Positions 11,673-64,000 of a stretch of DNA of 64,000 bases are shown here, one piece after another. The notes under the pieces are model-generated. The model worked only from the letters and a program-made list of their open reading frames with translations, ran no database searches and had not been told where the DNA came from. The DNA lies in contig OY761556.1 of assembly GCA_963664705.1 (NCBI GenBank), positions 2,528,001 through 2,592,000 on the forward strand, written 5' to 3'. Source of the stretch: Acidobacteriota bacterium. GTDB taxonomy: Bacteria; Acidobacteriota; UBA6911. Position numbers and translations under genes: made by a program. Each line of letters opens with the position of its first letter. The first letter of the stretch is position 1.

Positions 11673-11766
11673 GGAGAGGTACCGAAGAGGTCGTAACGGG
11701 CTCGACTCGAAATCGAGTTAGGGACCAAAAGTCTCTACGTGGGTTCGAATCCCACCCTCTCCGCCA
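11673..11766 (+). tRNA. tRNA-Ser(CGA); probable prophage attachment site (attL)
   Basis: GGAGAGG/CCTCTCC acceptor stem plus GCCA, anticodon arm CTCGA-CT-CGA-AA-TCGAG, long variable arm, GGTTCGAATCC T loop; integrase ends 29 bp downstream. Confidence 0.97.
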
Positions 11767-11794: not shown

Positions 11795-12955
11795 TCACTC
11801 ACGATTTCCGGAAACTCCATTCGAAATTTGATCCGCTGAAGTCGCTGTGGTAATATTGTGGGGATCCTGCGGCTCCTCCTTTATCCCCACGACCTTCAGG
11901 ATGTCCCTTCTGGCCGCATTACCAATCCGATTTCCACTCATTGCCTCATATGCAGCCCTGATTTCCTCCTCCTCGGGATGGACATACCGATAGGTCATCG
12001 CGATCGTTGAATGCCCAGCCGCCTTCGCGACTGCATAAGGATTTCTGCACGACTTCGCCAGCCTGGTAAGCGCGGTGTGCCTCAGACAATAGGGCTCGAA
12101 CGACTCCACCCCGCTCCTCTCCAGAGCCCCATGATGCCAGTCGAAAACCCGCTGCTGACCGTACGGCTTGCCCTTCCTCTCGGGGTCGGGCGACGGAAAC
12201 AGCCATCCGGATTTCGGCCAGCTAATCTGGTCCAGCCATCGCTTTAGTGCCAGGTACACGGCATCGACCATTGGCAGGTCCCGCTTCGCAGCCTTGGATT
12301 TCCCTGACCGTACATGGATGACAAACCGCTCAAGATCTGCGTCGTCCACTTTCAGCTGAAAAACCTCGCCCGGCCTGAGGTCCTGGTTGACGATAATTGT
12401 GGCCATCGTGCGCCACGGCTCCGTGCAGGCCTCGAGGTATTTCGACTCCTCATCTGGTGTGATGACGCGATCTCGCATCCTCTCCCCCGGCGCCAGTTTT
12501 ATCACAGTCTTCCTCTGCAGTTTCCCCCACTCGAACGCCAGGTTCAGCGCCCGCCTTAGGGTTCGTAGAGACTGGTTCATTCCCGAAGCTGACAATTTCT
12601 CGTGCTCCAGCTTGAACTCCGCTATATTCGCGCCGCAGATTTCGTCTATCGGCTGCTTACCGATCTTCGATCCCTGCAGCTTGATAGATCCATACTTGTA
12701 GTAATCGAGGGTATTCGGCTTCTCCTTGTGCTCGACCGTGACGAACGGATCGAAATCATGCTTGAGGAAGTCCTTCAGCAGTGGGGCCGGCCCTGCCTTC
12801 AGGATACCGATGTTTCCGAGCCTCAATTCCTTGCGGAGGCCGTTCTCATATTGCCGGGCGTCTTCCTTATTGGTCATGCCAGTCGAGTCCCGATATCTCC
12901 TACCCTCGATCATGAGTTCGCACCACCAGATTTTTCCTCTCTTGTAAAGGGCCAT
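11795..12955 (-). CDS. int: Tyrosine recombinase / phage integrase
   Basis: LRPGE, KSK, YCLRHT, GH, RY catalytic set; N-terminal arm-binding region. Confidence 0.95.
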   Translation of the reverse strand: MALYKRGKIWWCELMIEGRRYRDSTGMTNKEDARQYENGLRKELRLGNIGILKAGPAPLLKDFLKHDFDPFVTVEHKEKPNTLDYYKYGSIKLQGSKIGKQPIDEICGANIAEFKLEHEKLSASGMNQSLRTLRRALNLAFEWGKLQRKTVIKLAPGERMRDRVITPDEESKYLEACTEPWRTMATIIVNQDLRPGEVFQLKVDDADLERFVIHVRSGKSKAAKRDLPMVDAVYLALKRWLDQISWPKSGWLFPSPDPERKGKPYGQQRVFDWHHGALERSGVESFEPYCLRHTALTRLAKSCRNPYAVAKAAGHSTIAMTYRYVHPEEEEIRAAYEAMSGNRIGNAARRDILKVVGIKEEPQDPHNITTATSADQISNGVSGNRE

Positions 12956-17427: not shown

Positions 17428-17943
17428 TCATTTTTCTTGAATTTTTTCCTCGAGCAGGTCGGATGAGGTTATTCTGCGCCCTAGTTTCTTCGAGAAGACG
17501 TCGCAGTATTTCGCCAGGGTTCTGGGGTACGGGGTCTTGCCTTTGCGGATGTGATTGATTATCTGCGATTTGGAGATGTCGGACCAATACTCCAGGTCAT
17601 CGTAGGTCCAATGGCATTCCAGCCTGAGCCTGTCGATATTCCGGCCGAAGGCAGTCGGATATTCCTCGGGTTCGTGAAGACCGCCTTCTGATGGTGAGGA
17701 TGTATCGCTAATGCTGGATGCCTGATCCCGCATCTGCATAATTTGCAGACGTATACCTTCGATAGCTGTACTTATGCCATCCAGCCGGCGCCGCAAGCCT
17801 TCGATATCATCTAGAATCCTGCTCCAGCCACCCATGAACCATTCCCGACTGGAACCATTTCCAGGGCGGAATTTCTCCCTTTTGATTATCTTGCCTGGCT
17901 CGCCTTCGCGAGTCTTTGGCTCTTCCTCGGATGGAAAAGTCAC
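17428..17943 (-). CDS. XRE-family HTH regulator (HTH C-terminal, coiled coil N-terminal)
   Basis: FGRNIDRLRLECHWTYDDLEYWSDISKSQI...GKTPYPRTL; start uncertain. Confidence 0.8.
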   Translation of the reverse strand: MTFPSEEEPKTREGEPGKIIKREKFRPGNGSSREWFMGGWSRILDDIEGLRRRLDGISTAIEGIRLQIMQMRDQASSISDTSSPSEGGLHEPEEYPTAFGRNIDRLRLECHWTYDDLEYWSDISKSQIINHIRKGKTPYPRTLAKYCDVFSKKLGRRITSSDLLEEKIQEK

Positions 17944-18056: not shown

Positions 18057-20051
18057 ATGTGGACCAGCCACGAAGATCCGGACGATAACGAGCTTCGCCA
18101 AGCTTGCGAGCGGGTCCGCTGGATTCTGGGCGGCGGCTTTCAAGGATCTGAGCTCATAGTGGCTCGGGCCGCGCTTAGGATTGATAGAACCTACACAAGC
18201 CACGTGCAGAATAAGAAACGTGGCGAGAGCATCAAAGCCAGGAACCCCCAGGTATCCCACCAGCCCCGTTTCACTCCGAAGCAAATACTCGAACTGCTTG
18301 TCATGAGCGAATTAGAGAAAGAGGAAAAGAAACAAGAGGCTCCCGGCCATGATTTGACGCACGACGACTGGATCAAGCGCCTCTGTAAGCATTTGATAAA
18401 GCACTCGCTGACCCACACTTCGTACCATGCTGCCGTGGCTGTCGGCCGGATCCTCTGTACCTATAAGGCAAATGAGATAAGAGGCATGTACCTGCTTGTT
18501 GCCTATGACCGGGCACTGAAGAAAAGCGACCCGGAGTGTTGCCGAGCCAAAAATAGTTTGAGAAGGAGCGTGGCGCATCGGTTTGACATCGACGAGGAAG
18601 ATCTATTCAAGGAAAGATCTTGTGACAGGCTCACAGACTCCGATCGGCGAGTCCCTCTGACTATTCAGTCGCTCGACCGTTTCGCGCCTGCTGGCGGCAT
18701 CATTCCCGAGGAATACTCATGGGAATCAAACGACAATGAGGATCCTCATGCAGATTCCGTTATCGAGGTGGAGCGTATGTCTCGATTCTTCAGAATCACG
18801 AATAAATTCAACCCACTCGCGAAGGCTGCCAATCTAAAGCCCTTCGAGGAATCCGTCAAAGAATTGAAAAACTGGTGGCCTTTCTCGCCAGACGCAGGCA
18901 CAAAAAAGAACGGTAACGATGGCGGCAATGGCAGCGACGGAGGTCAGTATAACTTAAAAGAAATTCGAGACCATGTGGCGCGCGAACGGAAACGGCGGCG
19001 CCGTGTTTCGCCGGGATCACTGACAATCCGCGTTGATGGAAAAGATCAAGCTACGATCAACCTGTCGGAACAGGAGCATGAGGCGACACTTGAGGCGGAT
19101 GCCACGATAGTCGATGTTGTCGGGCGAGATGACCAGGGGGACGTCGTCCTGGCGACTTACGTGCTTACTTACGATGATCAACCACGAACAGAGGAGTGGT
19201 CGGCCGATTTACCACGATCGCAGAAACTCCTATGCACTTTCGAGTACGACGAGGAATATCGGGTGCACGCTAGATTCACCCTGACAAACACCAAACAGAT
19301 CGTTGCAACGTTGCAAGACCGTGAATACCCTGCGAGCAGAATCTCAAGTGCTTTGAGTCCAGCCTGGCTTAAAGCGCAGATCGTTCTGAGTTTTGCTGGC
19401 AAGGCGCTCATATCCATGGCCGTAGTTCTGGCAGCCCTGATTTATGTAAATATGCAGCAAAGCCTGAATAATCAAAGGACCATGCACGATCTGAATTTGG
19501 CGTATCTTCAAACCTTCTCTCGGGACATTGGAAGTGCAGAGCCAGGCCAGCGCTTACGGGCCATAAGCGTCTACCGGGAAATGAGCCCGCAATTGGCCGC
19601 ACCGCTGGCGCCCATAGCTGCGGAAGCAGATCCAATGACGGCAACGAATCGATCCGTGGAGATTTTGGCGGACAGGTCGCAGGATCCTCAGACCCGGAGT
19701 GTCGCCGAGCAAAGTCGCCGGCGGATAATGGGCGATTTCCGCATCGAGGAGCCTTCATATGGCAGTAAGGTGAACGTGAGGCAGGTTGTTCGCGGGACCA
19801 CGCCATTTCCCGAAATGCGGCATTACATAATAGTGACTACGCCGCAGGGAGTGGATTTTGTTGCGGGCGAAGCCAGGGTGTCCGGTGATACATGGGAGGG
19901 GGTCGCAACTTTTGGATCTGCTGGAGTAGGTAGGGGAGAGAAGTTTTATGTTCGGGTTATCGCGACAAGGACGAGTTTACCAGAAGGCCCGTTTGCCGGG
20001 ATGGCGGATGCTATAGCCTCAGATTCAATTCCGGTGATGCGCGACCCGTGA
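18057..20051 (+). CDS. Single-pass membrane protein: ~430-aa cytoplasmic region plus C-terminal exported beta-sandwich domain
   Basis: TM ALISMAVVLAALIYV; last ~105 aa align by eye with the two neighbouring exported proteins. Confidence 0.8.
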   Translation: MWTSHEDPDDNELRQACERVRWILGGGFQGSELIVARAALRIDRTYTSHVQNKKRGESIKARNPQVSHQPRFTPKQILELLVMSELEKEEKKQEAPGHDLTHDDWIKRLCKHLIKHSLTHTSYHAAVAVGRILCTYKANEIRGMYLLVAYDRALKKSDPECCRAKNSLRRSVAHRFDIDEEDLFKERSCDRLTDSDRRVPLTIQSLDRFAPAGGIIPEEYSWESNDNEDPHADSVIEVERMSRFFRITNKFNPLAKAANLKPFEESVKELKNWWPFSPDAGTKKNGNDGGNGSDGGQYNLKEIRDHVARERKRRRRVSPGSLTIRVDGKDQATINLSEQEHEATLEADATIVDVVGRDDQGDVVLATYVLTYDDQPRTEEWSADLPRSQKLLCTFEYDEEYRVHARFTLTNTKQIVATLQDREYPASRISSALSPAWLKAQIVLSFAGKALISMAVVLAALIYVNMQQSLNNQRTMHDLNLAYLQTFSRDIGSAEPGQRLRAISVYREMSPQLAAPLAPIAAEADPMTATNRSVEILADRSQDPQTRSVAEQSRRRIMGDFRIEEPSYGSKVNVRQVVRGTTPFPEMRHYIIVTTPQGVDFVAGEARVSGDTWEGVATFGSAGVGRGEKFYVRVIATRTSLPEGPFAGMADAIASDSIPVMRDP

Positions 20052-20063
20052 AGGAGACATTCA

Positions 20064-20519
20064 ATGCGAACAAAACGATTGGTGCTGACTGCTGCCGTTC
20101 TTGGAATTATTTCCGCATTGGGATTGCAGGCGCTTCAGGTCGGGGAATCACGGGCTCTGACGAATGTCGAACAGACTCAGAGTCTAAAGATCTGGATAAC
20201 CGAACCGAAGAATCGAGAAACAGTCCCTGAAAGGCCATATGTCGAGGGAAAGGTATCCAATACGACTGCTGCCGTTTGGGTGCTTGTGCATCCGATGGAG
20301 GTTTCGGACTATTGGGTTCAGCCGCAGCTCACAGTGAATCGAGACGGCGCCTGGAGGGTTGGCATATATATAGGCCGGCCTGGCACCGTGGATGCAGGAA
20401 AGCGCTTTGAAATTATGGCAATCGCGAATCCTAAACGTCCGCTGAAGGAGGGAGATGTCTTGCGGTTCTGGCCGGACGCTGAATCAAAATCAGAGGTAGT
20501 TGAGGTGATTAGGAAATAG
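20064..20519 (+). CDS. Exported beta-sandwich (Ig-like) domain protein
   Basis: Signal peptide/anchor MRTKRLVLTAAVLGIISALG; GGAG RBS; paralog of neighbours. Confidence 0.85.
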   Translation: MRTKRLVLTAAVLGIISALGLQALQVGESRALTNVEQTQSLKIWITEPKNRETVPERPYVEGKVSNTTAAVWVLVHPMEVSDYWVQPQLTVNRDGAWRVGIYIGRPGTVDAGKRFEIMAIANPKRPLKEGDVLRFWPDAESKSEVVEVIRK

Positions 20520-20524
20520 AAGAT

Positions 20525-20701
20525 TCAGCAAGGAACATTGGTATGAAACTGCTCCCGGTCCGCGTCGGGATAGAGCGATTCCCTCGCAAACTCAAAGATC
20601 TGCCGTGAACTCTGGAAGATATTCCAGTTGCTCAGCACGGAGGCGTCTCGGACGAGTGAGATCCTCTGTCGGAAGATCCGATATTGATATGCGACGATCA
20701 T
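20525..20701 (-). pseudogene. Truncated RadC/JAB-like gene (N-terminal fragment)
   Basis: Manual translation MIVAYQYRIFRQRISLVRDAS...FARESLYPDADREQFH then stop; JAB HxH motif missing. Confidence 0.6.
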
Positions 20702-20998
20702 AGATTCCTCCCGTTTCTCGCAAATTGCTCGGCAACTGTCCTTGGGCTGTAATAAAAATCAAGCTCCGCGTGGTTCTCGATCAATTCCTCAATGGATATG
20801 TAGCCATACTCCTGACCATATCCGAGATCGGCAATTCCGAAGGCCTGGAGCTGTTTCCGCTCTCCGTCCTTTTCCGTGATGTACCAGTTGCAGTTTCCTA
20901 TGAGGTAGTGAAGGTAAATGACGGCCTGGTCTCCTTTGCCCTCCTATGAATCGGGTCAGTTTGTCCAATGCAGCTTTCGCTTCCTCAAATCTGTCCAT
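20698..20998 (-). pseudogene. Frameshifted DUF2958-like mobile-element gene
   Basis: Start frame MDRFEEAKAALDKLTRFIG; second frame KGDQAVIYLHYLIGNCNWYITEKD...QAFGIADLGYGQEYGYISIEELIENHAELDFYY. Confidence 0.65.
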
Positions 20999-21450
20999 TC
21001 CAAGTTCCTTTCTTATGAGTTTGCGGGCGCCATATTGTCGGGAGCCTCACGTAATGACCGGAAGAATGCTGAAAGAAGGCATGTGGTTGAAACTGGAAGG
21101 CGCAGGTGTCCTAGATCCTGTCGTACAAGTAGTTGATTGTGCAACAGGATAGATGCAATTCACGCCCTGCCGGGCTGCAAAGACACGATTCATTTTCCAA
21201 GACTCCATATATGCGCCAGCCAACGCTTTCAGGGATCATTGAATAAAATTTTCGAAAAAAGTGAGAATTTTTGCGAATTCCGGTAGGCGCCGACCATTCT
21301 TTTGCGTTCTTGATAACTGAAATAACCTGCAATCTTGGTTTTTCAAGTTACGGATTATTTGTTTCGGGACTGGCTTGCATAGCAATGGGTCCAGGTTGGG
21401 AGTCGGGTCCATTGCTTTCGCTTTGGCTCAGTACCCCTGGAGGCAGAAAC

Positions 21451-21873
21451 ATGAAAGCATTCTGGGTTGGCCTTGCGCTTGTTCTGTTTGGTTGCAACGC
21501 CCTGGCTCAATCGAGCCTGAGAATTGATAAGCTCGAACGGAAAAATATCGAGGAAGCAGGCACGACCGTCGGTTACAGCGGGTTGATAGAAGGAACAACC
21601 GACGATCCTGATCAAATAATCTATGCGCTAGTCCATGAGCCGCACCTGAAGGCCTGGCGGCTTTTCCCCGCGACCATTCACGAAGAAGGGGGCGCTTATC
21701 GCTGGAGCGCCCTGTGCCATTTCGGCAAATCGGATGGCACCGGGATTGGCGCATCCTATCAGGTCCGGGTCATGGCATTGGACCGGAGCCGAACCCTGAC
21801 CGAAGGCTTGCCCGCCAAATTGTCTCCCACCACCCTCAAGTCAAACGTGATTGTCCTGAAACGCACAAGATAG
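21451..21873 (+). CDS. Exported beta-sandwich domain protein directly upstream of Rhs
   Basis: Signal peptide MKAFWVGLALVLFGCNALA (possible lipobox LFGC); GGAGG RBS; ends 16 bp before Rhs start. Confidence 0.85.
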   Translation: MKAFWVGLALVLFGCNALAQSSLRIDKLERKNIEEAGTTVGYSGLIEGTTDDPDQIIYALVHEPHLKAWRLFPATIHEEGGAYRWSALCHFGKSDGTGIGASYQVRVMALDRSRTLTEGLPAKLSPTTLKSNVIVLKRTR

Positions 21874-21889
21874 CGCGGAGAACTGGGCC

Positions 21890-24800
21890 ATGACAAAACG
21901 AATCCTACTCATTCTGATTGCATTCCTGACTTTCCCGATCGCAACAAGAACCGCTCTTATTGAAACCGAATTAACCTATGACTGCATGAATGTGCAGGGG
22001 ATGTATTCATTTGTTCCCTATCTGGGCGGACTTGGACAAATCAACCTGGTGAACGGAAATCTTGTTTTCAGCAGGCCGTTGCCGACGCGACCGGGCAGAG
22101 CCGGCTTGGATCTGTCCCTGTCATTGGCCTATAACAGCAAGATCTGGACGCGAACCGGCACCACGCTGATGGGGTTGTCCGAACCGGGAAGTTCCGTGGG
22201 ATTGGGGTGGCGGCTTGGATTTCCATACCTTGTCCAGGGGAGATCCAGCTATACACTTGTCATGTCCGACGGCAGTTCGCACGAGATTGCCGATTATGGA
22301 CGCGGCGACTGGAGGTCTGTCGATTCCACCTATATACGGCTGACGCCGGGCAATCCGAAGGTGGCGACGATGGTCGGAGGCACAAAGCTGTTTTTTGGAA
22401 ATACCGTGGGGGCCAATTCCTACGCAACGGAAGTTCGGGATCGAAACGGAAACCAGATATTTGCAACCTATGTGCCCGGCACCGGGAAACTGGCCTCGAT
22501 TGACGACAGCCTGGGAAATTCCTACGACACAACCACCTACCCTTACACAGCCGTGCCGCAGATGACTTTCTTCTATGGCGGGGATGGATTTCTCAGCAAC
22601 ATCCGGGTGATGCATGCGAGCTATCCCATATGGATTAATTTTCAATACGCGACACCGTCGCTTTCGCCGTCCTTCCCGTCTCCTTATACGGTTCAGAGCC
22701 CGGGCCCCAATGAAAAGGTGTTGAGTTCGATATGGATGACCGGAATCAACGGAGGCCTGAGCAATACGCGCCTGGGCCAATTGTTTCAATACAATGCGTT
22801 TGGCGAGCTGGCGTCGGTCACCGACTCGGTCAGCGAATACGGCTATGATTACAATACCTATCAATGGACACTGATTTCATCCACGAGCAGGGACAGAGTT
22901 TCCTATTCCTATACGACAAACAGCATCTATGATGGCGGCACTCCAAGCTGGCGCCCGCAGAGGATGGTTTCCCAGAAAACCGAATACGTAAACAACAACG
23001 GCATCGTAACCAGTTCCACGTGGTCGATTGGATACAGCGTGGACCAGACCAAATCGAATCCTTCCTCGGTGGAGGTAGCCTCCGAAATCGACGGACGATC
23101 GGTTTACAGTCTGAACTACACCTCATCGGGATCGAACTGGTCTGACGGCATGCCGATCTCGGTCACGCGGAAAACCTATAACGGGCAGACTGTTTTGAGG
23201 ACCCAGAGCTATTCCTGGAGTCAGGACGATACGCTGAAGACTTTTGTTCTGAACCCGCGAATCACGTCTGCCACAACCACGCTGGACGATGGGAAAACGA
23301 CGCAAACGGCAACAACCTACGCCGCCGACGGGACCGGCAATGTGAAGGAAACCGTCGAAACCGGGTTCAGCGGTTCGGTGCTTCGAAGAACGGCAATGGA
23401 GTACTGGCACGAGACGCATCCGGAATATGTTGCGCAGGGATTGACCAACCTGGTGTCGGCCGTATCGACAAGAAACGCAGGCAATGTCGAGCTGACCCGG
23501 ACACAGACCGCCTATGACGAATATGGCGCTTATCCTTTGGTGGCGATGGCCTATAACCCGGTCAATCACAATTCCGGATACTGGACAGCATATTTGACGC
23601 GGGGAAACGCGACCAGTGCGGGAGCGCTGTACAAGGAGCAGTCCCGATGGGTTATGTCTCATGCCCAATATGATATCGCGGGCAATGTGGTGAGGAAGGT
23701 TGATCCCAAAGGCAACCAGTCCACGGTTTCCTATACCGTCGGTCCCTATCCGGCCTCGTCGACCGATGCCATGAATCATACGACGCAGTACTCGTGGGAG
23801 AGTTTCCTTGGTACGGCTTGGACCGGGAATCTGTATTCGACGACGGACCCCAACGGCGCCCAGGTTACCAATGCCTATGACGGGCTCAATAGAAAAGTAA
23901 ATCAATCGGCGCCGACCGGAAATTCGTATTTTTCTTATGATGATCAGGATTACCAGGTAACCACCAACAACTCATCGGGTTATTCCTATTTTGACAGCAA
24001 TCCTTCGGGCAACACGATCAAAACGCAGAAGGAGATCCCGTCGGAAAACAGCATTTATGAAAAAGCGGACTACGATGCTCATGGCCAGGCCACGAAGAAG
24101 TGGCTGCCCAGTCGTGGAGGCACGGCGGCGTTTACGACCTACAGCTATGATGTGCTGGGCAGGATTACCAGCGTAAGCCCGGCAACGGGCGGCCAGATAA
24201 CGTATCAATATGTGGGAAACGTAACCACAGCGACCGATCAGGAGGGACGAAGAAAAAGGACGGAACACAATGAGTCCGGGCAGATTCTAAAGGTGATCGA
24301 GGAGGATTCCAACGGGAACTGGGGACCTGAGACGGTATATTCCTATGATATTCCGGGCCGGCTGATACAAATCCTGCAGGGGGTTCAAGTGAGGACCTAT
24401 GGATACAACAGCCTGGGCAGAAAGATAGCGGAAACCAATCCCGAGAGCGGAACGGTAACGTTTGTCTATGACGATAACGGGAACGTGACGCAGAAGACGG
24501 ATTCCAGGGGTGTCGTCACGGGCTACAGCTATGATGCCCTGAACCGGTTGCTGGTTACGTCCTATTCGGACGGTACTCCATGGTCGCTGATGAGTTACGA
24601 TGAATCGAGTTCGAGTCTGATAGGTCTGATAACGAACGGGCAGGGGCGGATGACGAGCGCCTGGACGGTCAACAGCAGTCTTCAGATTACAGGAGAGAGT
24701 GTCGGTTATAGCTGGAGCTACGACCAGGGGGGCCGGGTGACGCAGCAGATCATGCGTATGGACTCCACGAATTATCCTGTAAACTATAACTACACACCGG

Positions 24801-26707
24801 CTGGCTGCGGATGCTCGAAGAAGGACCTACAAAGTATGACCTATCCTGACGGCAATGAGATCACATACACGCGAGATCCAATCGGACGAGCGACGGGAAT
24901 AGCAGATACTGTCATTTCCGGGACGAGCCGAACCTATGTCACGGATGTCGACTACGCGCTGGTGGATGGATCGGTTTCGCTGATTTCGTATGGAACCAGC
25001 TCGGAAGAGCATGTCGCGGATAGTTACGGGAGGCTTTCGGTCATCCGGATAACGGTTCCGAATAGCATGTGGGGGACTCCCCACGAATATGACCTGAATT
25101 ATTCGTACACGCTGTCCAACCGGATCTCTCGGGTCGACTACACGAAAAAGGATGCTTACGGCAACAGCCTGGAATCGAAATGGTCGACGTATGGGTACGA
25201 TCGATTGGGGCGGCTGTCGGCGGAAACTCTGCAGTCGGCGAATGGAACGGAGTGGAGCGGCAACTGGAGTTATGACAGGTATGGAAATGTGAGTGGGACC
25301 GCCAATGACCAGAACAACCGGCTTGCAGCGTATGCATCTTACTACGATCAGTCGGGCAACCAGCTTCAGGATGCGGCCAATTCGTACCTTTACAATGCCA
25401 ACAATATGATAAGGCAGGCGAATCGCACGTCGGATAGCGCGTTACTGGGAGCGTACCGGTACGATGCACTGGGCCGCAGGGTGAAGAAGAGCTGGAATTA
25501 CTTTTATTATGGAGAGCAGCGCTCGGTCAGCTATTCGTATGTTTATGGGAACGGCAATGAAATCCTTGCCGAATACAAGGTGGAGAGCGCGTCGTGGCAG
25601 ACGTATGAAAATACATATACGAACAATATCTATATGAACTCGGCGCTTGTTGCGCGGCGCACCAGGGGCTATACGAACAACAGCTTTGGCTACACGGTGG
25701 TGGATAACCTCAAATGGCCGGGAAGGAATCACCGGCAGGAGGAGATTGTTACGATCGGAAGCCAGATCGTTGATAGTGGCTTTTATTCCAGGGCATTTGG
25801 TTCCGGCGGCTCGGATCAATATCCCGGCCACAAGGTGGATGAAGAGACAGGTCTGAAGGACTTCGGGTCGAGGTATTACAATACATCGCTGATGCGATGG
25901 ACCTCTCCGGATCCTCTAACTGCCCATATCTTTGATCCTCAGTCGCTGAACAAGTACGCGTACGTCAGAAATGATCCGGTGAACAGAGTCGATCCGAATG
26001 GCAGAGACTCTATATTCCTTGATCCCTACGCCTACAGCAATGCCTTATTTGCATTCGGATTTGCCGAAGCTGCTGGAACGGCTACTGAAGAGGAATTCAA
26101 TACCTGGCTTTTCGAGACTCTGACGCCACTTTCATTGAATACCTCATTTGACTCTGACAGCATGACAATAAACATCAGCCTTGCCGTAATGGCTCCTTTT
26201 TATCCTGAGCCGGTTTTTGATGCGGCGACGGGTTTGTTGATGGATCCAACCGGATATATTGAACCGGGCATACAAGACGCGAGTTTTGGATTCGTGACAA
26301 CGGTCGTACCTATGGTGCGGGGAGCGGTTGGTATTGGAGTGGCGGCGGGAAGAGGTGTTATCAGTAGCATTTCTTCCTCAGTTTCCACAACTGAAATTGG
26401 TGCAATAGGGACTCGCCTGATTTCAGACGAAACTGGTGCAATTACGATTGGGACTACGGAAGTGCACCACTTGCTTCCGACACAATTTAAGACTTTTTTC
26501 AAAGCAGCGGGACTTGATATTGAGGAATATACTCTTTCAATGAGTAAAGCAGGACATCGACTCCTTCCAGATGGCCTCCATACGGGTACGGGAGCAGACA
26601 ACTGGAATGGCGCATGGAAAATTTTTATTGATAGTAATCCTCTAGCAACAAAACAGCAGATTCTTGATCAACTTAATATCATGAAGGCGGAATTTGGATT
26701 ACCCTAG
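21890..26707 (+). CDS. Rhs/YD-repeat toxin with signal peptide and DUF2380-like (HNH-type nuclease) C-terminal tip
   Basis: Signal peptide; INLVNGNL..PGRAGL..YNS..GLGW; YD repeats; core end YAYVRNDPVNRVDPNG; tip HHLLPTQFKTFF..HR..GLH..WN. Confidence 0.93.
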   Translation: MTKRILLILIAFLTFPIATRTALIETELTYDCMNVQGMYSFVPYLGGLGQINLVNGNLVFSRPLPTRPGRAGLDLSLSLAYNSKIWTRTGTTLMGLSEPGSSVGLGWRLGFPYLVQGRSSYTLVMSDGSSHEIADYGRGDWRSVDSTYIRLTPGNPKVATMVGGTKLFFGNTVGANSYATEVRDRNGNQIFATYVPGTGKLASIDDSLGNSYDTTTYPYTAVPQMTFFYGGDGFLSNIRVMHASYPIWINFQYATPSLSPSFPSPYTVQSPGPNEKVLSSIWMTGINGGLSNTRLGQLFQYNAFGELASVTDSVSEYGYDYNTYQWTLISSTSRDRVSYSYTTNSIYDGGTPSWRPQRMVSQKTEYVNNNGIVTSSTWSIGYSVDQTKSNPSSVEVASEIDGRSVYSLNYTSSGSNWSDGMPISVTRKTYNGQTVLRTQSYSWSQDDTLKTFVLNPRITSATTTLDDGKTTQTATTYAADGTGNVKETVETGFSGSVLRRTAMEYWHETHPEYVAQGLTNLVSAVSTRNAGNVELTRTQTAYDEYGAYPLVAMAYNPVNHNSGYWTAYLTRGNATSAGALYKEQSRWVMSHAQYDIAGNVVRKVDPKGNQSTVSYTVGPYPASSTDAMNHTTQYSWESFLGTAWTGNLYSTTDPNGAQVTNAYDGLNRKVNQSAPTGNSYFSYDDQDYQVTTNNSSGYSYFDSNPSGNTIKTQKEIPSENSIYEKADYDAHGQATKKWLPSRGGTAAFTTYSYDVLGRITSVSPATGGQITYQYVGNVTTATDQEGRRKRTEHNESGQILKVIEEDSNGNWGPETVYSYDIPGRLIQILQGVQVRTYGYNSLGRKIAETNPESGTVTFVYDDNGNVTQKTDSRGVVTGYSYDALNRLLVTSYSDGTPWSLMSYDESSSSLIGLITNGQGRMTSAWTVNSSLQITGESVGYSWSYDQGGRVTQQIMRMDSTNYPVNYNYTPAGCGCSKKDLQSMTYPDGNEITYTRDPIGRATGIADTVISGTSRTYVTDVDYALVDGSVSLISYGTSSEEHVADSYGRLSVIRITVPNSMWGTPHEYDLNYSYTLSNRISRVDYTKKDAYGNSLESKWSTYGYDRLGRLSAETLQSANGTEWSGNWSYDRYGNVSGTANDQNNRLAAYASYYDQSGNQLQDAANSYLYNANNMIRQANRTSDSALLGAYRYDALGRRVKKSWNYFYYGEQRSVSYSYVYGNGNEILAEYKVESASWQTYENTYTNNIYMNSALVARRTRGYTNNSFGYTVVDNLKWPGRNHRQEEIVTIGSQIVDSGFYSRAFGSGGSDQYPGHKVDEETGLKDFGSRYYNTSLMRWTSPDPLTAHIFDPQSLNKYAYVRNDPVNRVDPNGRDSIFLDPYAYSNALFAFGFAEAAGTATEEEFNTWLFETLTPLSLNTSFDSDSMTINISLAVMAPFYPEPVFDAATGLLMDPTGYIEPGIQDASFGFVTTVVPMVRGAVGIGVAAGRGVISSISSSVSTTEIGAIGTRLISDETGAITIGTTEVHHLLPTQFKTFFKAAGLDIEEYTLSMSKAGHRLLPDGLHTGTGADNWNGAWKIFIDSNPLATKQQILDQLNIMKAEFGLP

Positions 26708-26790
26708 AGGGAGAGTCCGTAGATGAAATCTTAGAAGCATAATAGTAGAGCGAACTGCTGTCTTTCTATTTGAAGGCCATAAATGCAGAA

Positions 26791-27474
26791 ATGAAGATGA
26801 CTATGAAACAACGCATCTCGATTCTGAAGTCGAGCGGTAACCTGAGCCTTTTAGGAACGTGGAACAGTAGTGTTTCCTTAACATCAATCACTTGCAATTT
26901 GAATCCGGGGCATCAAAGGGTAGGGCCAAGAGTAGGGCAATTGAGTGTTGAATTGAATAAAAAAGTCATGAAAAATCAAATTGCCTGGACTTGGTACTCC
27001 AATTGTTTGGTGTCGCAAAACTCTCTTGAAGTGTTTCGAAATGCATCATTAACTGGGTTCGATATTCAATCAGTCGAAATCACGCAAAAAGGGAGCATTG
27101 TCGACCACAGTTTCAGCGAATTACTGGTCACAGGTTGGGGAGGAGTGGCGCCTGAAGCATGTGGTGTAAAACTCTTGGAATCATGCCCCGCCTGCGGTCT
27201 TCTTCGGTACAGTGCCGTTACGGATTGGAATCATCTTATTGATTTGGATGCGTGGGATGGTTCAAGTATTTTTATGGTATGGCCATTGCCCAAGTATATT
27301 TTTCTAACCGAAAAAGCCGCAGAGATCATAAAAATTCTTGGTGGCGACAGCACTGACGTTATACCTATTGGAGACCTTGAACCACAGAAGGGAGAATTAT
27401 CTCCAGGGCGATTGGGCAACTGGCTTTCAGAACACAGAATTGAGGAGCTGAATGTAGACCAGACAATTCGATAG
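26791..27474 (+). CDS. Putative cognate immunity protein, CXXCG-motif family
   Basis: Directly after toxin, AT-rich, CPACG motif, no signal peptide; start uncertain (26770-26803). Confidence 0.75.
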   Translation: MKMTMKQRISILKSSGNLSLLGTWNSSVSLTSITCNLNPGHQRVGPRVGQLSVELNKKVMKNQIAWTWYSNCLVSQNSLEVFRNASLTGFDIQSVEITQKGSIVDHSFSELLVTGWGGVAPEACGVKLLESCPACGLLRYSAVTDWNHLIDLDAWDGSSIFMVWPLPKYIFLTEKAAEIIKILGGDSTDVIPIGDLEPQKGELSPGRLGNWLSEHRIEELNVDQTIR

Positions 27475-27656
27475 GGTGAAGTGATGGAATGTTAAAGGGA
27501 ATGCGTATTCCCGCTATTCAGGTGGCACGGGGCATTTCCTCGTTTCTGTTTTCAGGCCGGCTACAAAAGATTGTCCCGAGGAAGAATCCTGTACACCTAT
27601 CATTTACAGGAAAATAAGCTTGGATACCCATTTGCTCTCAATATCAGGAGAAGTTA

Positions 27657-28091
27657 ATGAGTCGGCCAGCTCTATACCTTTTGTATCTTTTGTTTGCCCC
27701 AGTCTGTTTAGGACAAACAATAACGGTTCGTATCATTGACGTAGAAACTGGGAATCCATTGCCAAGTCAGCGAGTTTCAATATCCCTAATGTATGAAAAA
27801 GGGGATAAAACTCCTGCTAACTACATATCGCCTGTCATCCTAATTACAGACGATAAAGGATCCGCTCAAATTAGCATACCCTCTCCCGCACCAAGGTATG
27901 TAAATTTTCTCGTTGCGCTGAGTTCTGAGTGGTGGCAGTCAGAACGCGACCAGCGATTTACCCTAAAAACAAAAGAATTGATGCAAAAGGGGGCGGTTGG
28001 GAGGATGGTAAGTGAGGGAAGGAATGAGACTGCCCTAACGGCAAAACCGAGAGAAGTGCTTATTCTAACTCGGCCCCTTGTGTATCCTTAA
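27657..28091 (+). CDS. Exported carboxypeptidase-regulatory-like domain protein; probable orphan immunity
   Basis: Signal peptide, ITVRIID.ETGNPLP...TDDKG.A; AGGAG RBS. Confidence 0.7.
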   Translation: MSRPALYLLYLLFAPVCLGQTITVRIIDVETGNPLPSQRVSISLMYEKGDKTPANYISPVILITDDKGSAQISIPSPAPRYVNFLVALSSEWWQSERDQRFTLKTKELMQKGAVGRMVSEGRNETALTAKPREVLILTRPLVYP

Positions 28092-28178
28092 TGCAAGCCC
28101 AGTCACTACGCGGCATGGATGGCTTCCTGCAGAATTCGATCGCGTAGAGCAGGCTTGATGCCGTCGCGCAAAAACCAG

Positions 28179-28298
28179 GCTTACGTCAGAAATGATCCCG
28201 TGAATGGGGTTGATCCAGATGGGAATATAGCAAGGCAGGTCACCTATATCTCCGTTCCCATCTACTCGTCTTGTGAGTATTGGGATTCAAATTGGGGT
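28179..28298 (+). pseudogene. Orphan Rhs core-end/C-terminal cassette cut by IS3
   Basis: AYVRNDPVNGVDPDG, nucleotide-similar to the main Rhs core end near 25960-26002. Confidence 0.8.
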
Positions 28299-29538
28299 TG
28301 ACCCGAAACTGTTGACACGAAGTTAAGCGGCTTTGGCAGATTCCTCATAGGCTTCAGGGCTCCGATAGCCCAGAGCCGAGTGAAGCCGCTGTCGATTATA
28401 AAACACTTCGATATACTCAAAAATATCTGATTGCGCCTCCTTTCTCGTTTCGTAATTTCGATGATAAATAAGTTCTGTTTTCAGCGTGGCAAAGAAACTT
28501 TCCATAACAGCATTATCCCAGCAATTGCCTTTGCGGCTCATGCTGCAAAGAACTCCGCTAGATTTCAATAACTTCTGGTAATCCCCGCTGGCGTATTGGC
28601 TGCCTCGATCTGAATGATGGAGCAGACCTGGTGATGGGTTACGTTTGAAAAAAGCCATGCACAGAGCTCTTTCAACCAGATGTCGACAAATCCGGCTACC
28701 CATGGCCCAGCCAACGATCCTTCTTGAGTACAGATCCATCACCGCGGCCAGATACAACCAGCCTTCTTTTGTTGGGATGTATGTGATATCCGCCACCCAA
28801 GCTTTGTTTGGCATTTTCACCGCAAATTCCCGGTTCAACACATTTGGAGATATCGGGAAATTATGTTTTGAATCTGTCGTAACTCTAAATTTCCGTTTCT
28901 GTTTGCCTTGGATCCTATTCTCGCGCATTAGCCTGGCAATACGATTCCTGCTGTGTAATTTGGACACTGCCCGCAATTGCGCATGAATTCTGGGACTTCC
29001 GTACGCGCCCCGGCTTGCCCGATGAATTGCCCGAATTGCTAGTAATAATCGGCTGTTCTCTGCATTCCTCGGGCTCTCGGGCCGCTTGAGCCAAAGGTAG
29101 AATCCGGCTCTGGATACTTCAAGCACTCGACACATCAGCGATATCGTAAATTCATGCCGATGCGCTTGAATGAAGCCATACCTCATTTGGATTCTTTGGC
29201 AAAGAACGCCGTCGCTTTTTTTAATATATCGCGCTCCTGACGCAGTAAGGCATTCTCGCGCCGTAGGCGACGGAGTTCTTCCTCCTCTGGTTTCAAATGC
29301 CCAGATCCCGGAAATGCTTGAGAGGTGTTTGCGAATTCCTTTTTCCAACGTGTCAGCATGTTTGCGTTTATTCCCAAATCTCTGCTGGCCTGTGCAATGG
29401 TGATATTTGACTCGGTGAGCATACGAACTGCTTCGATTTTGAATTCCTTCGTGTACTTCCTTCGCTGTTTTTCCATGACACACCCTCTGGTGGACTAGAA
29501 TGTTCCACCCTTTTCAGTGTGTCAACGGAATCGGGTCA
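28299..29538 (-). mobile_element. IS3-family insertion sequence (1240 bp)
   Basis: Terminal IRs TGACCCGAAACTGTTGACAC / TGACCCGATTCCGTTGACAC, TG...CA ends, orfA+orfB; no clean target duplication. Confidence 0.95.
28323..29476 (-). CDS. IS3 transposase OrfAB (-1 frameshift)
   Basis: OrfA 29183-29476 HTH; OrfB DDE motifs [20 protein letters not shown] in -1 frame; A7G run at 29215-29222. Confidence 0.93.
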
Positions 29539-29707
29539 TGGTTAAATCGAGAAGCATGGATAACGGAAGTTACCTTATCCGGTATCTCATTGAAACCAGC
29601 CTTTGTAGATGAACCTCTGAGAGCCAGATTTGGAAAACTGGACAAGGGGATAAGTGCTAATCTTGCCCAAACTGAAGGCCGGCCTTCGGGGAAATAACAA
29701 ATTGGAG

Positions 29708-58063: not shown

Positions 58064-61000
58064 CTACCTTCCCGAGCCATAAGTCTCCACGGCTCTCTTT
58101 GTATTTTGGTCCACCGACTTCATTCGCTCTCCTTCAGCATACGCCTTTGCTTTTGGTATGTTCTTGTCAACTTGAAGCCATGACGGATTCCACAGACCAT
58201 ACATCGAAAGTCTATTGAAAGCTTTGTTAACATACGATTGAGTATCAAATCCGGTATGTTCATAAGCGTATATTTGCTTGTCAGACATATATTTAGGACC
58301 ATAGCGTCTGTCGGCAATATGAGCCCCTTCATGCGCCACGATGGCTGCATTTTCAACACTCGGATCAATAGGCTTTCCAGCCATCCTTTGTGATCGCGTG
58401 CCTGTTTTGATTGCGTCAATATCGAATCTGACTGTAACTATTCCTGGTCCGCCAGTAACTCCTGCATACCCTCTTGGCACAGTCCCAAATTCGACAATAA
58501 CTCCATTAAAATCGTTTTCCTTTCCATACGTATCTAGAACTTTCTTTATGGAGTTATATTCATCGGAGCCTTCTTTCAGTTTGTTCAATGCGGTTTCCAT
58601 CTCCGCTAACTGCGTTCTGAACCATGTCTGATTTGCTTGGCATTGGCTATCGGTTATCTCGCAACCAACCGCAAAATTGAACAAACCATCAGGATCGGTA
58701 AAGGTAAAGGGAGCATTAAACGCATAGCTGTATCGATTCCATGATTGAGGATTGTTGGGATGCCCACTATTCAGCAAAGGGTCAGGACCTAGGAACCTGC
58801 CCTGGACCCCTGAGAAGTACCTAGCCCCGAAGTAATCCAACCCCGTTTCGGCGTCCCGTTCTTTGCCAGTAAATTTCTGCGGTTCCCGGCTGGTGATCTG
58901 CACGTCAGGGTTCGACAAATAGCAGTTCACTTGACTTCTCGTATTATCCGCCGAGCTTATCATTCGTCCAAAAGGCAGATAATCATTGCACTCCAGCGGG
59001 GTTCCCGTATCCGACGTGACTGCCCGGACGCTGCCCAATATATCTGATGTCAACCATGTCGCACCAGTGCTTGTCGGAGCCTGAGTGGAGTTTTCGGCTG
59101 CCAGCCGGCCCAGAGCATCATATAGGTAATATGTGTAGATCGTCGAACCGCCGTATGTCCAGGTCTTCTTGATTCGACGTCCTTCTCCATCGTAAGCGAT
59201 GGAACCGGATCCTGGACCTGAGATGCTTATGTTTCGATTTTCCGCATCGTATCCAAGCGTAAAGGACCCATACTGGGTTTGATTTCCTGAGGAATCATAG
59301 CCCCCCGGAATATTGAGGCGATTTGTCGAAGTAATGTAATTGTTGAGGCTTGCCGGTTCTCGCGAATCGGAATGCGCCAGGTTTACGGTCGTCACCGCCT
59401 GGTTGCCCCATCGATCATAGCTGAATGTCTGAGACCATGCTCCCATTTCGCTTGCAGTTGCCAATCGATCAAGCGGATCATAGGTAAATTCCTGGTAGTA
59501 GCTGTATGCCAAATTACGGGTTGTTCTTTGGTTTTGCAAATTTCCGTTGTTTTGCGTGGCATGATAATTATAGTCCAACCTCAGCCGTTCCTCTCCGCCC
59601 AGCGTCGTACCCAAACGGTAATAAGTCGTTTCTCCCGGTGTGTGGTACTCGCGTGTATCATAGAGGCCATTGCCCAATCGCATTCGTGCTATCCGTCCGT
59701 CAGGCGCATACGTTGAAAACGGAAAGTCAGCAATCACGGTCATATCCGTGTACGTCCTTGCGGAGCTGTAAACCTTACTATTTCGCCCCATGTTCTCAAC
59801 ATCATAATTCACGGTGCGTCCCGAAGGATAGGTAATGTCTTTTAATCCGCCATTAACGTACCAATGATAACCGAACGTAAACTTCCCATACCCGTTAATC
59901 GTCTGGCTGCTGCTCAAGACATTCCCAAATTCGTCATAGCTATCATATGCCATTGATGCCACATTCGAACTGATTGACTTTAGCCGGCCTACATTTGGAG
60001 AAACTGATGATCCTGCCAGATAATAACTATACGTAACATTTGGCGTGGTTGGATTATCGCTGTAGGTTTTGCTGACAATCCGATGCAACGGATCATAGGC
60101 AAATGTTGTCACTATATTTCGGGCGTCAGTCCGTGTCTGAAGGTCTCCACTGTCGAGATAGGCATAGGATGCGCTGCCGCTCTCCGGATTCGATGTCGAA
60201 CGCAAACGGCTTAAGGAACTGTAATTGAAGGTCCTGGAAGGCTGCGTTCCTTGAGTGACCTGAGTCAAGTTATCCAGGGGGTCATAAAAATAAGTCGTGC
60301 TGTAATTCAGGCCGGGGCTTGGGTCCTCCACTACCTCCAGCATTCGCCCCAGACCATCGTGCCGCTGCTTGCGTACTTTTAGCGCGGGATCGGTAACGGT
60401 TGTCCACTCAGCGTCATAGGCCTTTGTTGTCACGCCTGTGCGGGTGGTGGGATTGGTTTGCTCACAATTGGCAGGTTCGCTGCTCCCTTTGAAAATCCCA
60501 ACCTTTGATACGCGGCCAAGCAGATCGTATTGCGTGCATGTCCATTCCAATGTCGGATCATTAAGCGTTCGATAGGGAGTGCTGGTGATTACCCGGCGAC
60601 CGCCCTGGGCATACAAATCGTGTGTAGTCGTATAAATATAGTTCGGGACACCATTGACCGTCTTTTCCAATTTCCGAACCATATTTGCCCGGCCCACCTG
60701 ATCATAATTCGTAATGGTTTGTGATACCTGATCCGCATTCGTCCGCAAATCGCTTATGCCCATAACGGAGCGATCAGCGTCATTATAGATTGAAGATGTT
60801 TGTCTCAGGAGGTTCCACGTGCCGGAAACAGACTTCTTATCGGCAGTGGTCAGCTGCCGCCCTACGTTATCGTAGGTATAGAAAGTCCCCATGCCATTAT
60901 CCAGATCCTTCTTGGATGCAAGTGCTACCCCTACCGACAGAATGTTGTTGGATTGATCACGAATCATCCAGTCGTATTCCCAGGAGCGATGCACACTATT

Positions 61001-63148: not shown

Positions 63149-63170
63149 TGTCACTCTCCTCCTCACTCGT

Positions 63171-63941
63171 CTAGAATTGGCTTGCGTCCAAGGCAGGCAC
63201 ATTCTCAATTGCTGTCACTGTAAATGAATAAACCAGTTTCCCACCCTCGTAATGCTCAATCACGGCCGGATATGCAGATCCGTCTATGCTTCCCCACATT
63301 GAAAACCGAGTCTCTATCTTTACAGGCGGCTTAACGCTTCGGTCATAATATTGGGTCCGCTGCAGGTATCCCGTTTTTGAATCATAGTAATAGGTTTTTG
63401 TTCTAATCGTTTTGTCCTGACGGCTTCGAACAGGAATAGTCACTTCAAAAAGGTCATAGCGCGGCCCCTTGTAGTCCAGCACAAGTGCAGGATCGGGCCC
63501 AAAACCCCGACCGATTATTCGGACTGCTGCCGATTCTTGTATCGATTCCAGCATTCCTTCCGGAAAGTCCATGACAAACGTTTCCAGTAATGCCTCATCG
63601 CTTTGGCGGGAGGTTATCCCCTTCACATCTTTGCCATTGAAGGAGATCGCTGTCCCTTGTCCCTTAAAACCTTCCAGTCGGACCAGTCCTGGCAATTGGT
63701 AGATCACCCGAGTCGCCGTCGCCTTGCCATCAGCATCTGTAAACTCGCCGATATAGATCGTCGTTTCCTTGCCGGAAGTTTTCACCCGGTCTCCCAGCGC
63801 TCCCATCTGCAATGCAAATACACTGGGTATATTGGAATAATACTTCCCCGTATTCGTATTATTTTGTTCCGAATTCACAAAAGGGCAAAACATGGTCGTG
63901 ATGAAAAGAGCAGCTAGCCAGAATCGATTCTTCATCTCCAT
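63171..63941 (-). CDS. Exported protein upstream of Rhs (possible LolA-like fold)
   Basis: Signal peptide; YYYDSKTGYLQR...ETRFS.W..IDG..YP beta pattern; GAGG RBS. Confidence 0.7.
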   Translation of the reverse strand: MEMKNRFWLAALFITTMFCPFVNSEQNNTNTGKYYSNIPSVFALQMGALGDRVKTSGKETTIYIGEFTDADGKATATRVIYQLPGLVRLEGFKGQGTAISFNGKDVKGITSRQSDEALLETFVMDFPEGMLESIQESAAVRIIGRGFGPDPALVLDYKGPRYDLFEVTIPVRSRQDKTIRTKTYYYDSKTGYLQRTQYYDRSVKPPVKIETRFSMWGSIDGSAYPAVIEHYEGGKLVYSFTVTAIENVPALDASQF

Positions 63942-64000
63942 TACCTCACCTCTGATATGTATTGATTGTTTGTGATTACGGAACAAACAGCGAATTCGAT

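Follow-up and report, generated by a model that had tools for sequence, protein, structure and literature searches.

The stretch of DNA analysed here (the window, 64,000 nucleotides) covers positions 2,528,001 to 2,592,000 of contig OY761556.1 from an Acidobacteriota bacterium (assembly GCA_963664705.1), whose genome is a single contig of 6.89 Mb. Within a prophage in this window, three genes on the plus strand encode related domains beside an Rhs toxin gene. The first, p664 (18057..20051, 664 aa), encodes a single-pass membrane protein with an outside immunoglobulin (Ig)-like domain and is predicted to be a sigma-like regulator. It is followed after 12 bp by p151 (20064..20519, 151 aa) and further on by p140 (ATG 21451 to 21873, 140 aa), both of which have a signal-peptide-like N-terminus and an Ig-like domain. 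The positions of the three open reading frames (ORFs), and the 16 bp between the p140 stop codon and the Rhs ATG at 21890, are as claimed by an earlier interpretation made from the letters alone (the sequence-only reading). We refer to the domain of p151 as type A, that at the C-terminus of p664 as type B, and that of p140 as type C. The 930 bp between p151 and p140 hold two broken genes on the minus strand, a radC/JAB remnant of only the first ~47 codons (20543..20686, recognized by tblastx to the RadC gene of a related locus, L045) and a DUF2958 gene in two frames (20698..21046, PF11171, E 8e-6).

The three copies are homologous. Alignment of the family profiles with hhalign, over 98–110 columns, was significant across the whole domain (probability 89–98%): type B against type A scored 97.7 (E 1.6e-12, 110 columns), type C against type A 89.0 (E 2.4e-6), and type C against type B 93.3 (E 2.7e-7). 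Pairwise BLASTP was weak, joining p140 to p664 (E 1e-4) and to p151 (E 5e-6), and p151 against p664 was not significant. Tryptophan, histidine and tyrosine residues are conserved in the domain, with the motif RGxTPFPxxxHYIVVT in type B (19734..20048, plus strand) and VHPxxxSDYWVQP in type A. In a tree of 78 domains (a quick tree from few columns, near-duplicate loci excluded), the window copies fall into three clades (SH-aLRT 97 for B, 98 for C, and 88 for A). A recent local triplication is rejected on this tree, as each copy is nearest to a homologue from elsewhere. The term paralogous, applied to these copies earlier, is therefore apt in the deep sense and not for local copies; judged from their sequences, A, B, and C are old subfamilies. 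An AlphaFold2 model of p151 is a beta-sandwich with a mean predicted local distance difference test (pLDDT) score of 87.6, rising to 93–98 across the domain. Its closest solved structures are generic Ig-like or fibronectin type III (FN3)-like domains (Z 9.8, root-mean-square deviation (rmsd) 2.6, 87 residues aligned), these matches being generic and tied at Z 8–10, and Foldseek likewise returned only generic Ig matches. The beta-sandwich proposed by the sequence-only reading thus appears in the model of p151, the only copy folded, with types B and C expected to be Ig-like by homology to it. Export of p151 and p140, also proposed there, would fit the single N-terminal hydrophobic segment that each protein has.

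The sequence-only reading had allowed that the domain might belong to a characterised family, but none of the three proteins had an above-cut-off match in the Pfam, NCBIfam, PHROGs, or PADLOC libraries. A PDB sequence search with the type-A and p664 profiles found nothing at E up to 1, the ESM Atlas gave three unnamed clusters for p151 and nothing for p664 aa 1–420, and scans of viral contigs with p140 and type A found no relatives. No title or abstract opening describing the domain was found in the literature, where word searches are ill-suited to an unnamed domain; passages of PMC8195603 do not describe it either. The family is nevertheless large: a type-A profile matched 1,465 clusters (50% identity) at E ≤ 0.001 among 1.84 billion protein representatives. 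Type A is 44–65% identical across phyla, and tandem A/B loci occur under nine phylum labels. Of the 150 best representatives, 140 have the domain at the C-terminus. A single N-terminal hydrophobic segment is present in 60 and none in 43, and the other 47 have at least two helices, or one helix together with a longer N-terminus. A scan of 72 of the longer representatives together with three p664 homologues found TIR_2 in 13 (11 above cut-off), and one match each to SPOR and, below cut-off, to a CBM_11-like domain. A few homologues match Glucodextran_B or Big_7, also below cut-off. As a separate observation, a type-A domain stands at the N-terminus of multi-pass membrane proteins of 576–822 aa (P0167, P0211, and L155 11016-12746), and a weak vWA match is found in the gene that follows at L155.

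Searches with type-A queries found 59 loci, 23 from genomes and 36 from metagenomes, of which 57 had a scored domain. Two or three copies stood in tandem with gaps of ≤30 bp at 35 of these 57 loci (29 of 44 after clustering at 85%). Among the 35 tandems, 18 start with B then A, and the other 17 are A-type, mostly a free copy beside a two-helix-anchored one. By these comparisons, p664 and p151 are one case of a widespread tandem in which a fused, usually membrane-anchored copy adjoins a signal-peptide copy. As the 59 loci had been selected by type A, an independent type-B search was run on 401 genomes of the phylum. It matched 3 other genomes, all of which (3/3) have an outside-facing relative directly after type B, namely type A twice and a distant cousin once; one of these loci is L024. 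The attached domains vary and include TIR, CHAT, and two-helix anchors. A genus mate has a protein with TIR, a transmembrane segment, and Ig, followed by a free copy; another locus pairs a CHAT-Ig protein with a free copy; and many tethered copies lack an output domain, their only additions being one or two membrane helices and a coiled stalk. The closest relative, L045, has the order p664 homologue, p151, then radC and DUF2958 on the other strand, at 75–81% DNA identity, and it is the broken pieces of radC and DUF2958 that sit between p151 and p140 in the window. The only two full-length p664 homologues found lie on contigs equal in size to those of two close p151 homologues (34 kb for P0064/P0009 and 5.7 kb for P0065/P0010), which suggests the same pairing. 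Neighbouring genes otherwise vary widely (108 scanned), apart from a GH16 gene (E 3e-22) at one locus and GH16-like genes at two others, a weak lead towards a glycan ligand, which we consider unlikely overall. Complex prediction for B with A scored 0.00 in both runs with controls unfolded and was used neither for nor against an interaction; that the two types act together physically is given slightly less than an even chance. A fourth, more distant branch of the domain, with a WYVQPY/WYIHPY motif, adjoins the pair at L024 10350-11591, L027 7519-8700, L155 13527-14702, and L156 10175-10603, and its gene carries a GH16 or GH16-like domain in three of these four loci.

The type-C gene keeps different company. 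Among 137 genomes of the class, type C was found in 4 genomes at 6 loci (type A in 2), and in 6/6 loci it lies directly before one clade of signal-peptide Rhs genes, which upholds the earlier claim that p140 is tied to Rhs. The gaps are 9–16 bp in the five loci with intact junctions; G485 has frameshifts in its type-C gene and in Rhs, and the two Rhs genes of G498 are split. A search of the same genomes with the Rhs N-terminus gave 24 matches in 17 genomes. The six type-C loci are precisely its 6 strongest matches, and no type-C gene lies within 1.5 kb of the remaining 18. The large protein search with p140 returned only the second copy in this genome, which belongs to a second cassette (p140 at 96% identity, the Rhs core at 95.7% over aa 1–1382, a different tip, and p144 at 85%). 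This cassette sits inside a duplicated comM/YifB 3' end without p664 or p151, so p140 and Rhs have moved independently of them. The duplicated stretch runs from 21445 to 28222 on the plus strand (21445-26001 at 95%, 27646-28222 at 90%). As the common DNA begins at 21445, only 6 bp before the p140 start, no common upstream promoter is visible, and the edge of the cassette coincides with the p140 ribosome-binding site. Breaks in the short-read contigs fall at 21449-21478, with depth rising there from 11.6 to 18.2. The second cassette, p140-Rhs-p144 with a double helix-turn-helix (HTH) gene, occupies L001 6796-15995 (genome ~3.532-3.541 Mb) between full comM/YifB and its 3'-end duplicate; no integrase gene was seen there and no obvious immunity gene follows its tip.

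Following p140 as gene 1 of the cassette, the Rhs/YD protein (21890..26707, plus strand, 1605 aa) has a signal-peptide-like N-terminus and above-cut-off matches for YD repeats and Rhs core (PF05593, 90.9 bits; TIGR03696, 64.8 bits), and no match to a PAAR or VgrG family. Its tip matches DUF2380 above cut-off and the SitA6 model (TIGR02269) below cut-off, and is likely to be a SitA6-like AHH nuclease. The next gene (26770..27474, plus strand, 234 aa) is a probable immunity gene with a weak SitI6-like match (TIGR02264, E 0.01, scoring 15 bits where the cut-off is 100); the second cassette copy, with its different tip, lacks this gene. The last cassette gene, p144 (27657..28091, plus strand), encodes a small protein with a signal-peptide-like start. 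It was rejected as the immunity gene because it is kept while the tip changes between cassette copies. Taken with its position, p140 is likely to be a dedicated accessory of an exported Rhs toxin, and we think it probable that p140 serves Rhs. The same prophage has a second, distantly related Rhs of 1714 aa with an HExxH-like tip, recognized by eye (58064-63986, minus strand, and L004 977-3092). Different proteins precede it, one of 271 aa, one of 315 aa, and a BACON/Big_9 protein of 438 aa, and its clade seems to have its own upstream partner, because G484 has a relative of the 271-aa protein in front of a related Rhs.

The sequence-only reading had described p664 as a membrane-tethered copy with a large cytoplasmic region, and this agrees with a single hydrophobic segment at aa 442–460 (19380..19436, plus strand, hydropathy 2.1), a predicted transmembrane helix before the type-B domain. 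The helix is at the same position in 9 p664-homologue loci. The first 460 residues define a family present in 7 of the 401 phylum genomes, whose members combine a common cytoplasmic part and one membrane helix with differing outside domains. In the p664 model (pLDDT 75.8) the N-terminal half is helical, and aa 317–411 (19005..19289, plus strand) form a beta-sandwich predicted to be C2-like (C2 domains, Z up to 5.4) and on the cytoplasmic side. In a wide structure search, sigma70-family chains occupied 7 of 50 rows on the helical part (Z 4.1–4.8), with region 4 of E. coli sigmaE placed on aa 100–178 (Z 4.4, rmsd 2.2, 66/69 residues). A profile of extracytoplasmic function (ECF) sigma factors, built from 23 such factors of this genome, matched region 2 to the first 50 residues of the family (62%, E 7e-5, 40 columns, 0/40 shuffles as high), the probability being 21–23% on a longer query. 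These weak profile and fold signals point to an ECF-sigma-like helical region at aa 10–178 (18084..18590, plus strand), with a region-2-like start and a region-4-like part at aa 100–178. A CHAT protease gene stands alongside 4 of 9 loci of cytoplasmic-part homologues and TPR regions occur in 2 more; a CHAT-linked context is reported for ECF54 in part of PMC8999054. The p664 family is not described in main-text passages of the ECF reclassification (PMC7826278). Overall, the cytoplasmic part looks like a divergent ECF sigma factor plus a C2-like sandwich. We lean towards p664 being sigma-derived, and with one membrane helix and an outside Ig domain it is likely to be receptor-like. At L033-L042, the p664 cytoplasmic family is seen with varied outside domains, and the L040 member, fused to a long TPR region, is encoded divergently from a TIR gene. 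A contig from another study joins 19174 to 19688, an in-frame skip of 513 bases that would delete the p664 membrane helix; this is a single contig with 31 letters on the short side and may be an artefact or a relative.

Our preferred reading, which we hold with somewhat more than even confidence, is that one prophage carries two independent cargo units built on a common ancient Ig-like domain: a p664 sensor with its p151 partner, and p140 as an Rhs accessory. In this scheme, p664 would be a membrane-tethered sigma-factor-like sensor and p151 its likely exported partner. Outside the cell, the type-B domain would bind either the free type-A protein itself or an envelope ligand that both recognize, with a glycan as the foremost candidate for such a ligand. 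Binding would trigger proteolytic release of the sigma-like part of p664, as in fused sigma/anti-sigma proteins such as IutY, and the released part would switch on target genes. In other bacteria, the same outside pair would be wired to TIR or to no output domain. Separately, Sec would export the Rhs protein as well as p140, which may bind the constant N-terminal region of Rhs to aid folding, surface display, or target docking. The Rhs tip would then kill competing bacteria as an AHH-type nuclease, with the next gene protecting the producer. In a bolder version, which we regard as somewhat unlikely, the domain would be an undescribed plug-and-play surface signalling module (a tethered receptor and a free co-receptor or ligand, with an output end freely swapped between TIR, CHAT, and a sigma family that hidden Markov models miss), with a third branch taken on by signal-peptide Rhs toxins as the first accessory dedicated to them.

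Several observations weigh against parts of this reading. A membrane helix precedes the domain in only 3 of the 13 TIR fusions and is missing from the other 10, so that the domain also works in the cytoplasm and, from predicted topology, is outside the cell often but not always. Single copies occur at 22 of the 57 scored loci, many of them on short contigs, and the A/B pair is thus not obligatory. For p664, the structure-search scores of Z 4.1–4.8 are within the noise range of the tool, region 4 has no profile signal (15/40 shuffles score as high), Pfam (Sigma70_r2/r4) and NCBIfam sigma models match 0 of 13 family members, the local ECF profile does not find members of the family, and Foldseek with p664 gave nothing at E 0.001. 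In addition, no CHAT gene adjoins p664, the two of this genome being far away. For the second unit, type C is known from 4 genomes of one family only, and three of the six type-C-linked Rhs genes are split over more than one frame. The separation of the units is also open to objection. A 286-aa YD-repeat ORF (Pfam) lies directly upstream of the L024 pair, a repeat profile finding it as the sole match in the 59 loci, and at L156 8533-15504 (G025) a tethered copy and a free distant copy stand between the type VI secretion genes IcmF/TssM and ImpE. The test for absence of Rhs is weakened by the selection of the 59 loci with type A and by their limited flanks (5 kb on one side in 32, 1.5 kb downstream in 38). 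Finally, that two branches of a rare family lie only 930 bp apart is striking.

The sequence-only reading had gone further and joined the three proteins into a receptor, ligand or decoy, and toxin-adaptor set, with p664 as receptor, p151 as ligand or decoy, and p140 as adaptor linking envelope sensing to Rhs expression or delivery. The parts fare well singly, p664 being receptor-like, p151 its constant free neighbour, and p140 Rhs-linked, but the joint set does not. Three homologues on one strand within 3.8 kb, one of which looks like a transcription regulator, do suit such a coupling, as does the possibility that a sigma factor acts in trans on both cassette copies, along with the YD-repeat ORF beside one other pair and the pair amid type VI secretion genes. 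Co-occurrence with Rhs, however, holds for type C (6/6 loci) and fails for types A and B (an Rhs core gene at 0/59 loci), and the p140-Rhs cassette occurs elsewhere without p664 and p151. The three other p140-Rhs genomes (G014, G498, and G485, 88–99% complete) had no match to type A, type B, or the p664 family, one of the searches having no positive control, and among the genomes and loci examined the neighbourhood is not repeated outside this locus. Within the window, the units are separated by broken opposite-strand genes and by the cassette boundary at the p140 ribosome-binding site. We therefore regard the coupled arrangement as very improbable and two separate units as highly probable, with some small probability left to selection for the neighbourhood of p664/p151 and p140.

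Two further explanations concern what the domain does. It could serve as a carbohydrate-binding module whose tandem-duplicated copies act independently on glycans of the envelope or the environment, for instance masking phage receptors or sensing glycans. The GH16 and GH16-like genes in 3 loci, the top fold matches to Ig domains of glycoside hydrolases, and the conserved W, H, and Y residues are consistent with this, yet those fold matches are generic and tied, neighbouring genes otherwise vary widely, and plain duplication leaves unexplained that A and B are separate deep clades in a fixed B-then-A order. Alternatively, the membrane anchor might nucleate or hold a surface layer or filament of the exported copy, with p140 a spacer or adhesin displaying Rhs. 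The many tethered copies with no more than a coiled stalk and one or two helices would suit such a structure, as would the C-terminal position of the domain in 140/150 representatives and the presence of adhesins and S-layer proteins among the Ig/FN3 matches. Fusions to TIR, CHAT, and sigma-like parts fit signalling better, and cytoplasmic TIR fusions would be unable to join a surface structure. Furthermore, an identity of 44–65% across phyla, as in type A, is unusual for an exposed structural subunit. We consider each of these two explanations distinctly unlikely, and return to p664 and p151 as a sensor pair and p140 as an Rhs accessory in comparing them with known systems.

EagR/DUF1795-type Rhs adaptors serve type VI delivery in the cytoplasm; p140 resembles them as a small gene directly before rhs and specific to one Rhs clade, and differs in its signal-peptide-like start, predicted Ig fold, and lack of a Pfam match. 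A survey of Rhs polymorphic toxins reportedly has a 'T2SS' class in which export is by signal peptide. Compared with the Rhs polymorphic toxins in the parts of PMC3482391 that describe them, the protein in the window shares YD repeats, an Rhs core, swapped tips on near-identical cores, and a downstream immunity candidate, and is distinguished by its signal-peptide-like start, the lack of a PAAR/VgrG match, and a dedicated upstream Ig-like protein. SitA6/SitI6 is a myxobacterial toxin-immunity pair, and the tested SitA6 alleles contain AHH nucleases (passages of PMC8546572). The Rhs tip (DUF2380/TIGR02269) and the next gene (weakly TIGR02264) are similar to this pair, both TIGR scores being below cut-off, while the tip rides on an Rhs shell and not on a lipoprotein. 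For p664, the closest known design is by analogy a fused ECF sigma/anti-sigma membrane protein released by proteolysis, such as IutY of Pseudomonas putida (ECF243) and the actinobacterial ECF48/52/53 proteins, for example SCO4117, which ends in a carbohydrate-binding domain (excerpts of PMC8999054). Like the IutY/ECF52 type, as portrayed in those excerpts, p664 combines in one chain an outside domain, a single membrane helix, and, at the N-terminus, a predicted sigma domain; unlike it, p664 is missed by sigma models, has a C2-like sandwich and no zinc-finger motif that we could see, and terminates in an unnamed Ig domain, a free homologue of which is paired with p664. Sigma systems linked to CHAT proteases offer a second comparison, namely ECF54 (PMC8999054, in part) and DdvS/DdvA of Myxococcus (PMC11506125, in part). 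Homologues of the p664 cytoplasmic part stand beside CHAT genes at 4/9 loci, as in those accounts, whereas p664 unites its sigma-like part and membrane helix in one protein with no adjacent CHAT gene. As to the Ig-like domain itself, it is of the same fold class as Glucodextran_B, Big_7, and the Ig domains of glycoside hydrolases (Z 8–10), but the copies in the window match neither Glucodextran_B nor Big_7, and the conserved motifs of the family are its own.

With 1,465 clusters the domain is common, yet none of the family libraries searched includes it. What is probably new here, judging by homology and gene context, is an unnamed domain family with a receptor-like tethered and free pair, and a new Rhs accessory. 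Receptor-like proteins with TIR, CHAT, or sigma-like heads and a free twin would give a small, foldable handle on surface or neighbour sensing in poorly studied bacteria, and the p664 family, if the sigma assignment is true, would be a hidden group of membrane-bound sigma-like regulators. We know of no settled account of how signal-peptide Rhs toxins without a type VI adaptor reach their target. p140 is a concrete candidate for this step, and a third-branch Rhs accessory, if confirmed, would point to how such toxins are displayed or aimed.

The prophage is integrated at a tRNA-Ser gene. A 60-bp repeat at the tRNA 3' end has an identical copy ~58 kb further on (blastn, aragorn), and the DNA between them encodes integrase, terminase, portal, capsid, and tail proteins. 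The first copy is attL (11705..11764, no strand assigned, the 3' part of tRNA-Ser CGA); the second lies beyond the window end. The integrase gene (11795-12955) was identified by library scan. The genes p664, p151, and p140 are on the strand opposite to the phage genes and between early and late genes, which is the usual cargo position in a prophage. A promoter and terminator scan gave chance-level results only. An assembly artefact was ruled out, as one short-read contig covers 11740-21478 with zero differences, although its run may be the source sample. Divergent from p664, an HTH gene (17428..17943, minus strand) has a weak Cro/C1-type match (HTH_26, E 0.022, below cut-off) and is probably a phage regulator outside the present finding. 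Phage genes of 11795-54865 (and L004 4259-6671) are on one strand, with replication-like genes at the far end near attR, and the prophage cargo forms two blocks, opposite or interspersed relative to the phage genes. An IS3-family insertion sequence lies at 28292-29548 and has two further copies in the genome at 99.9% identity.

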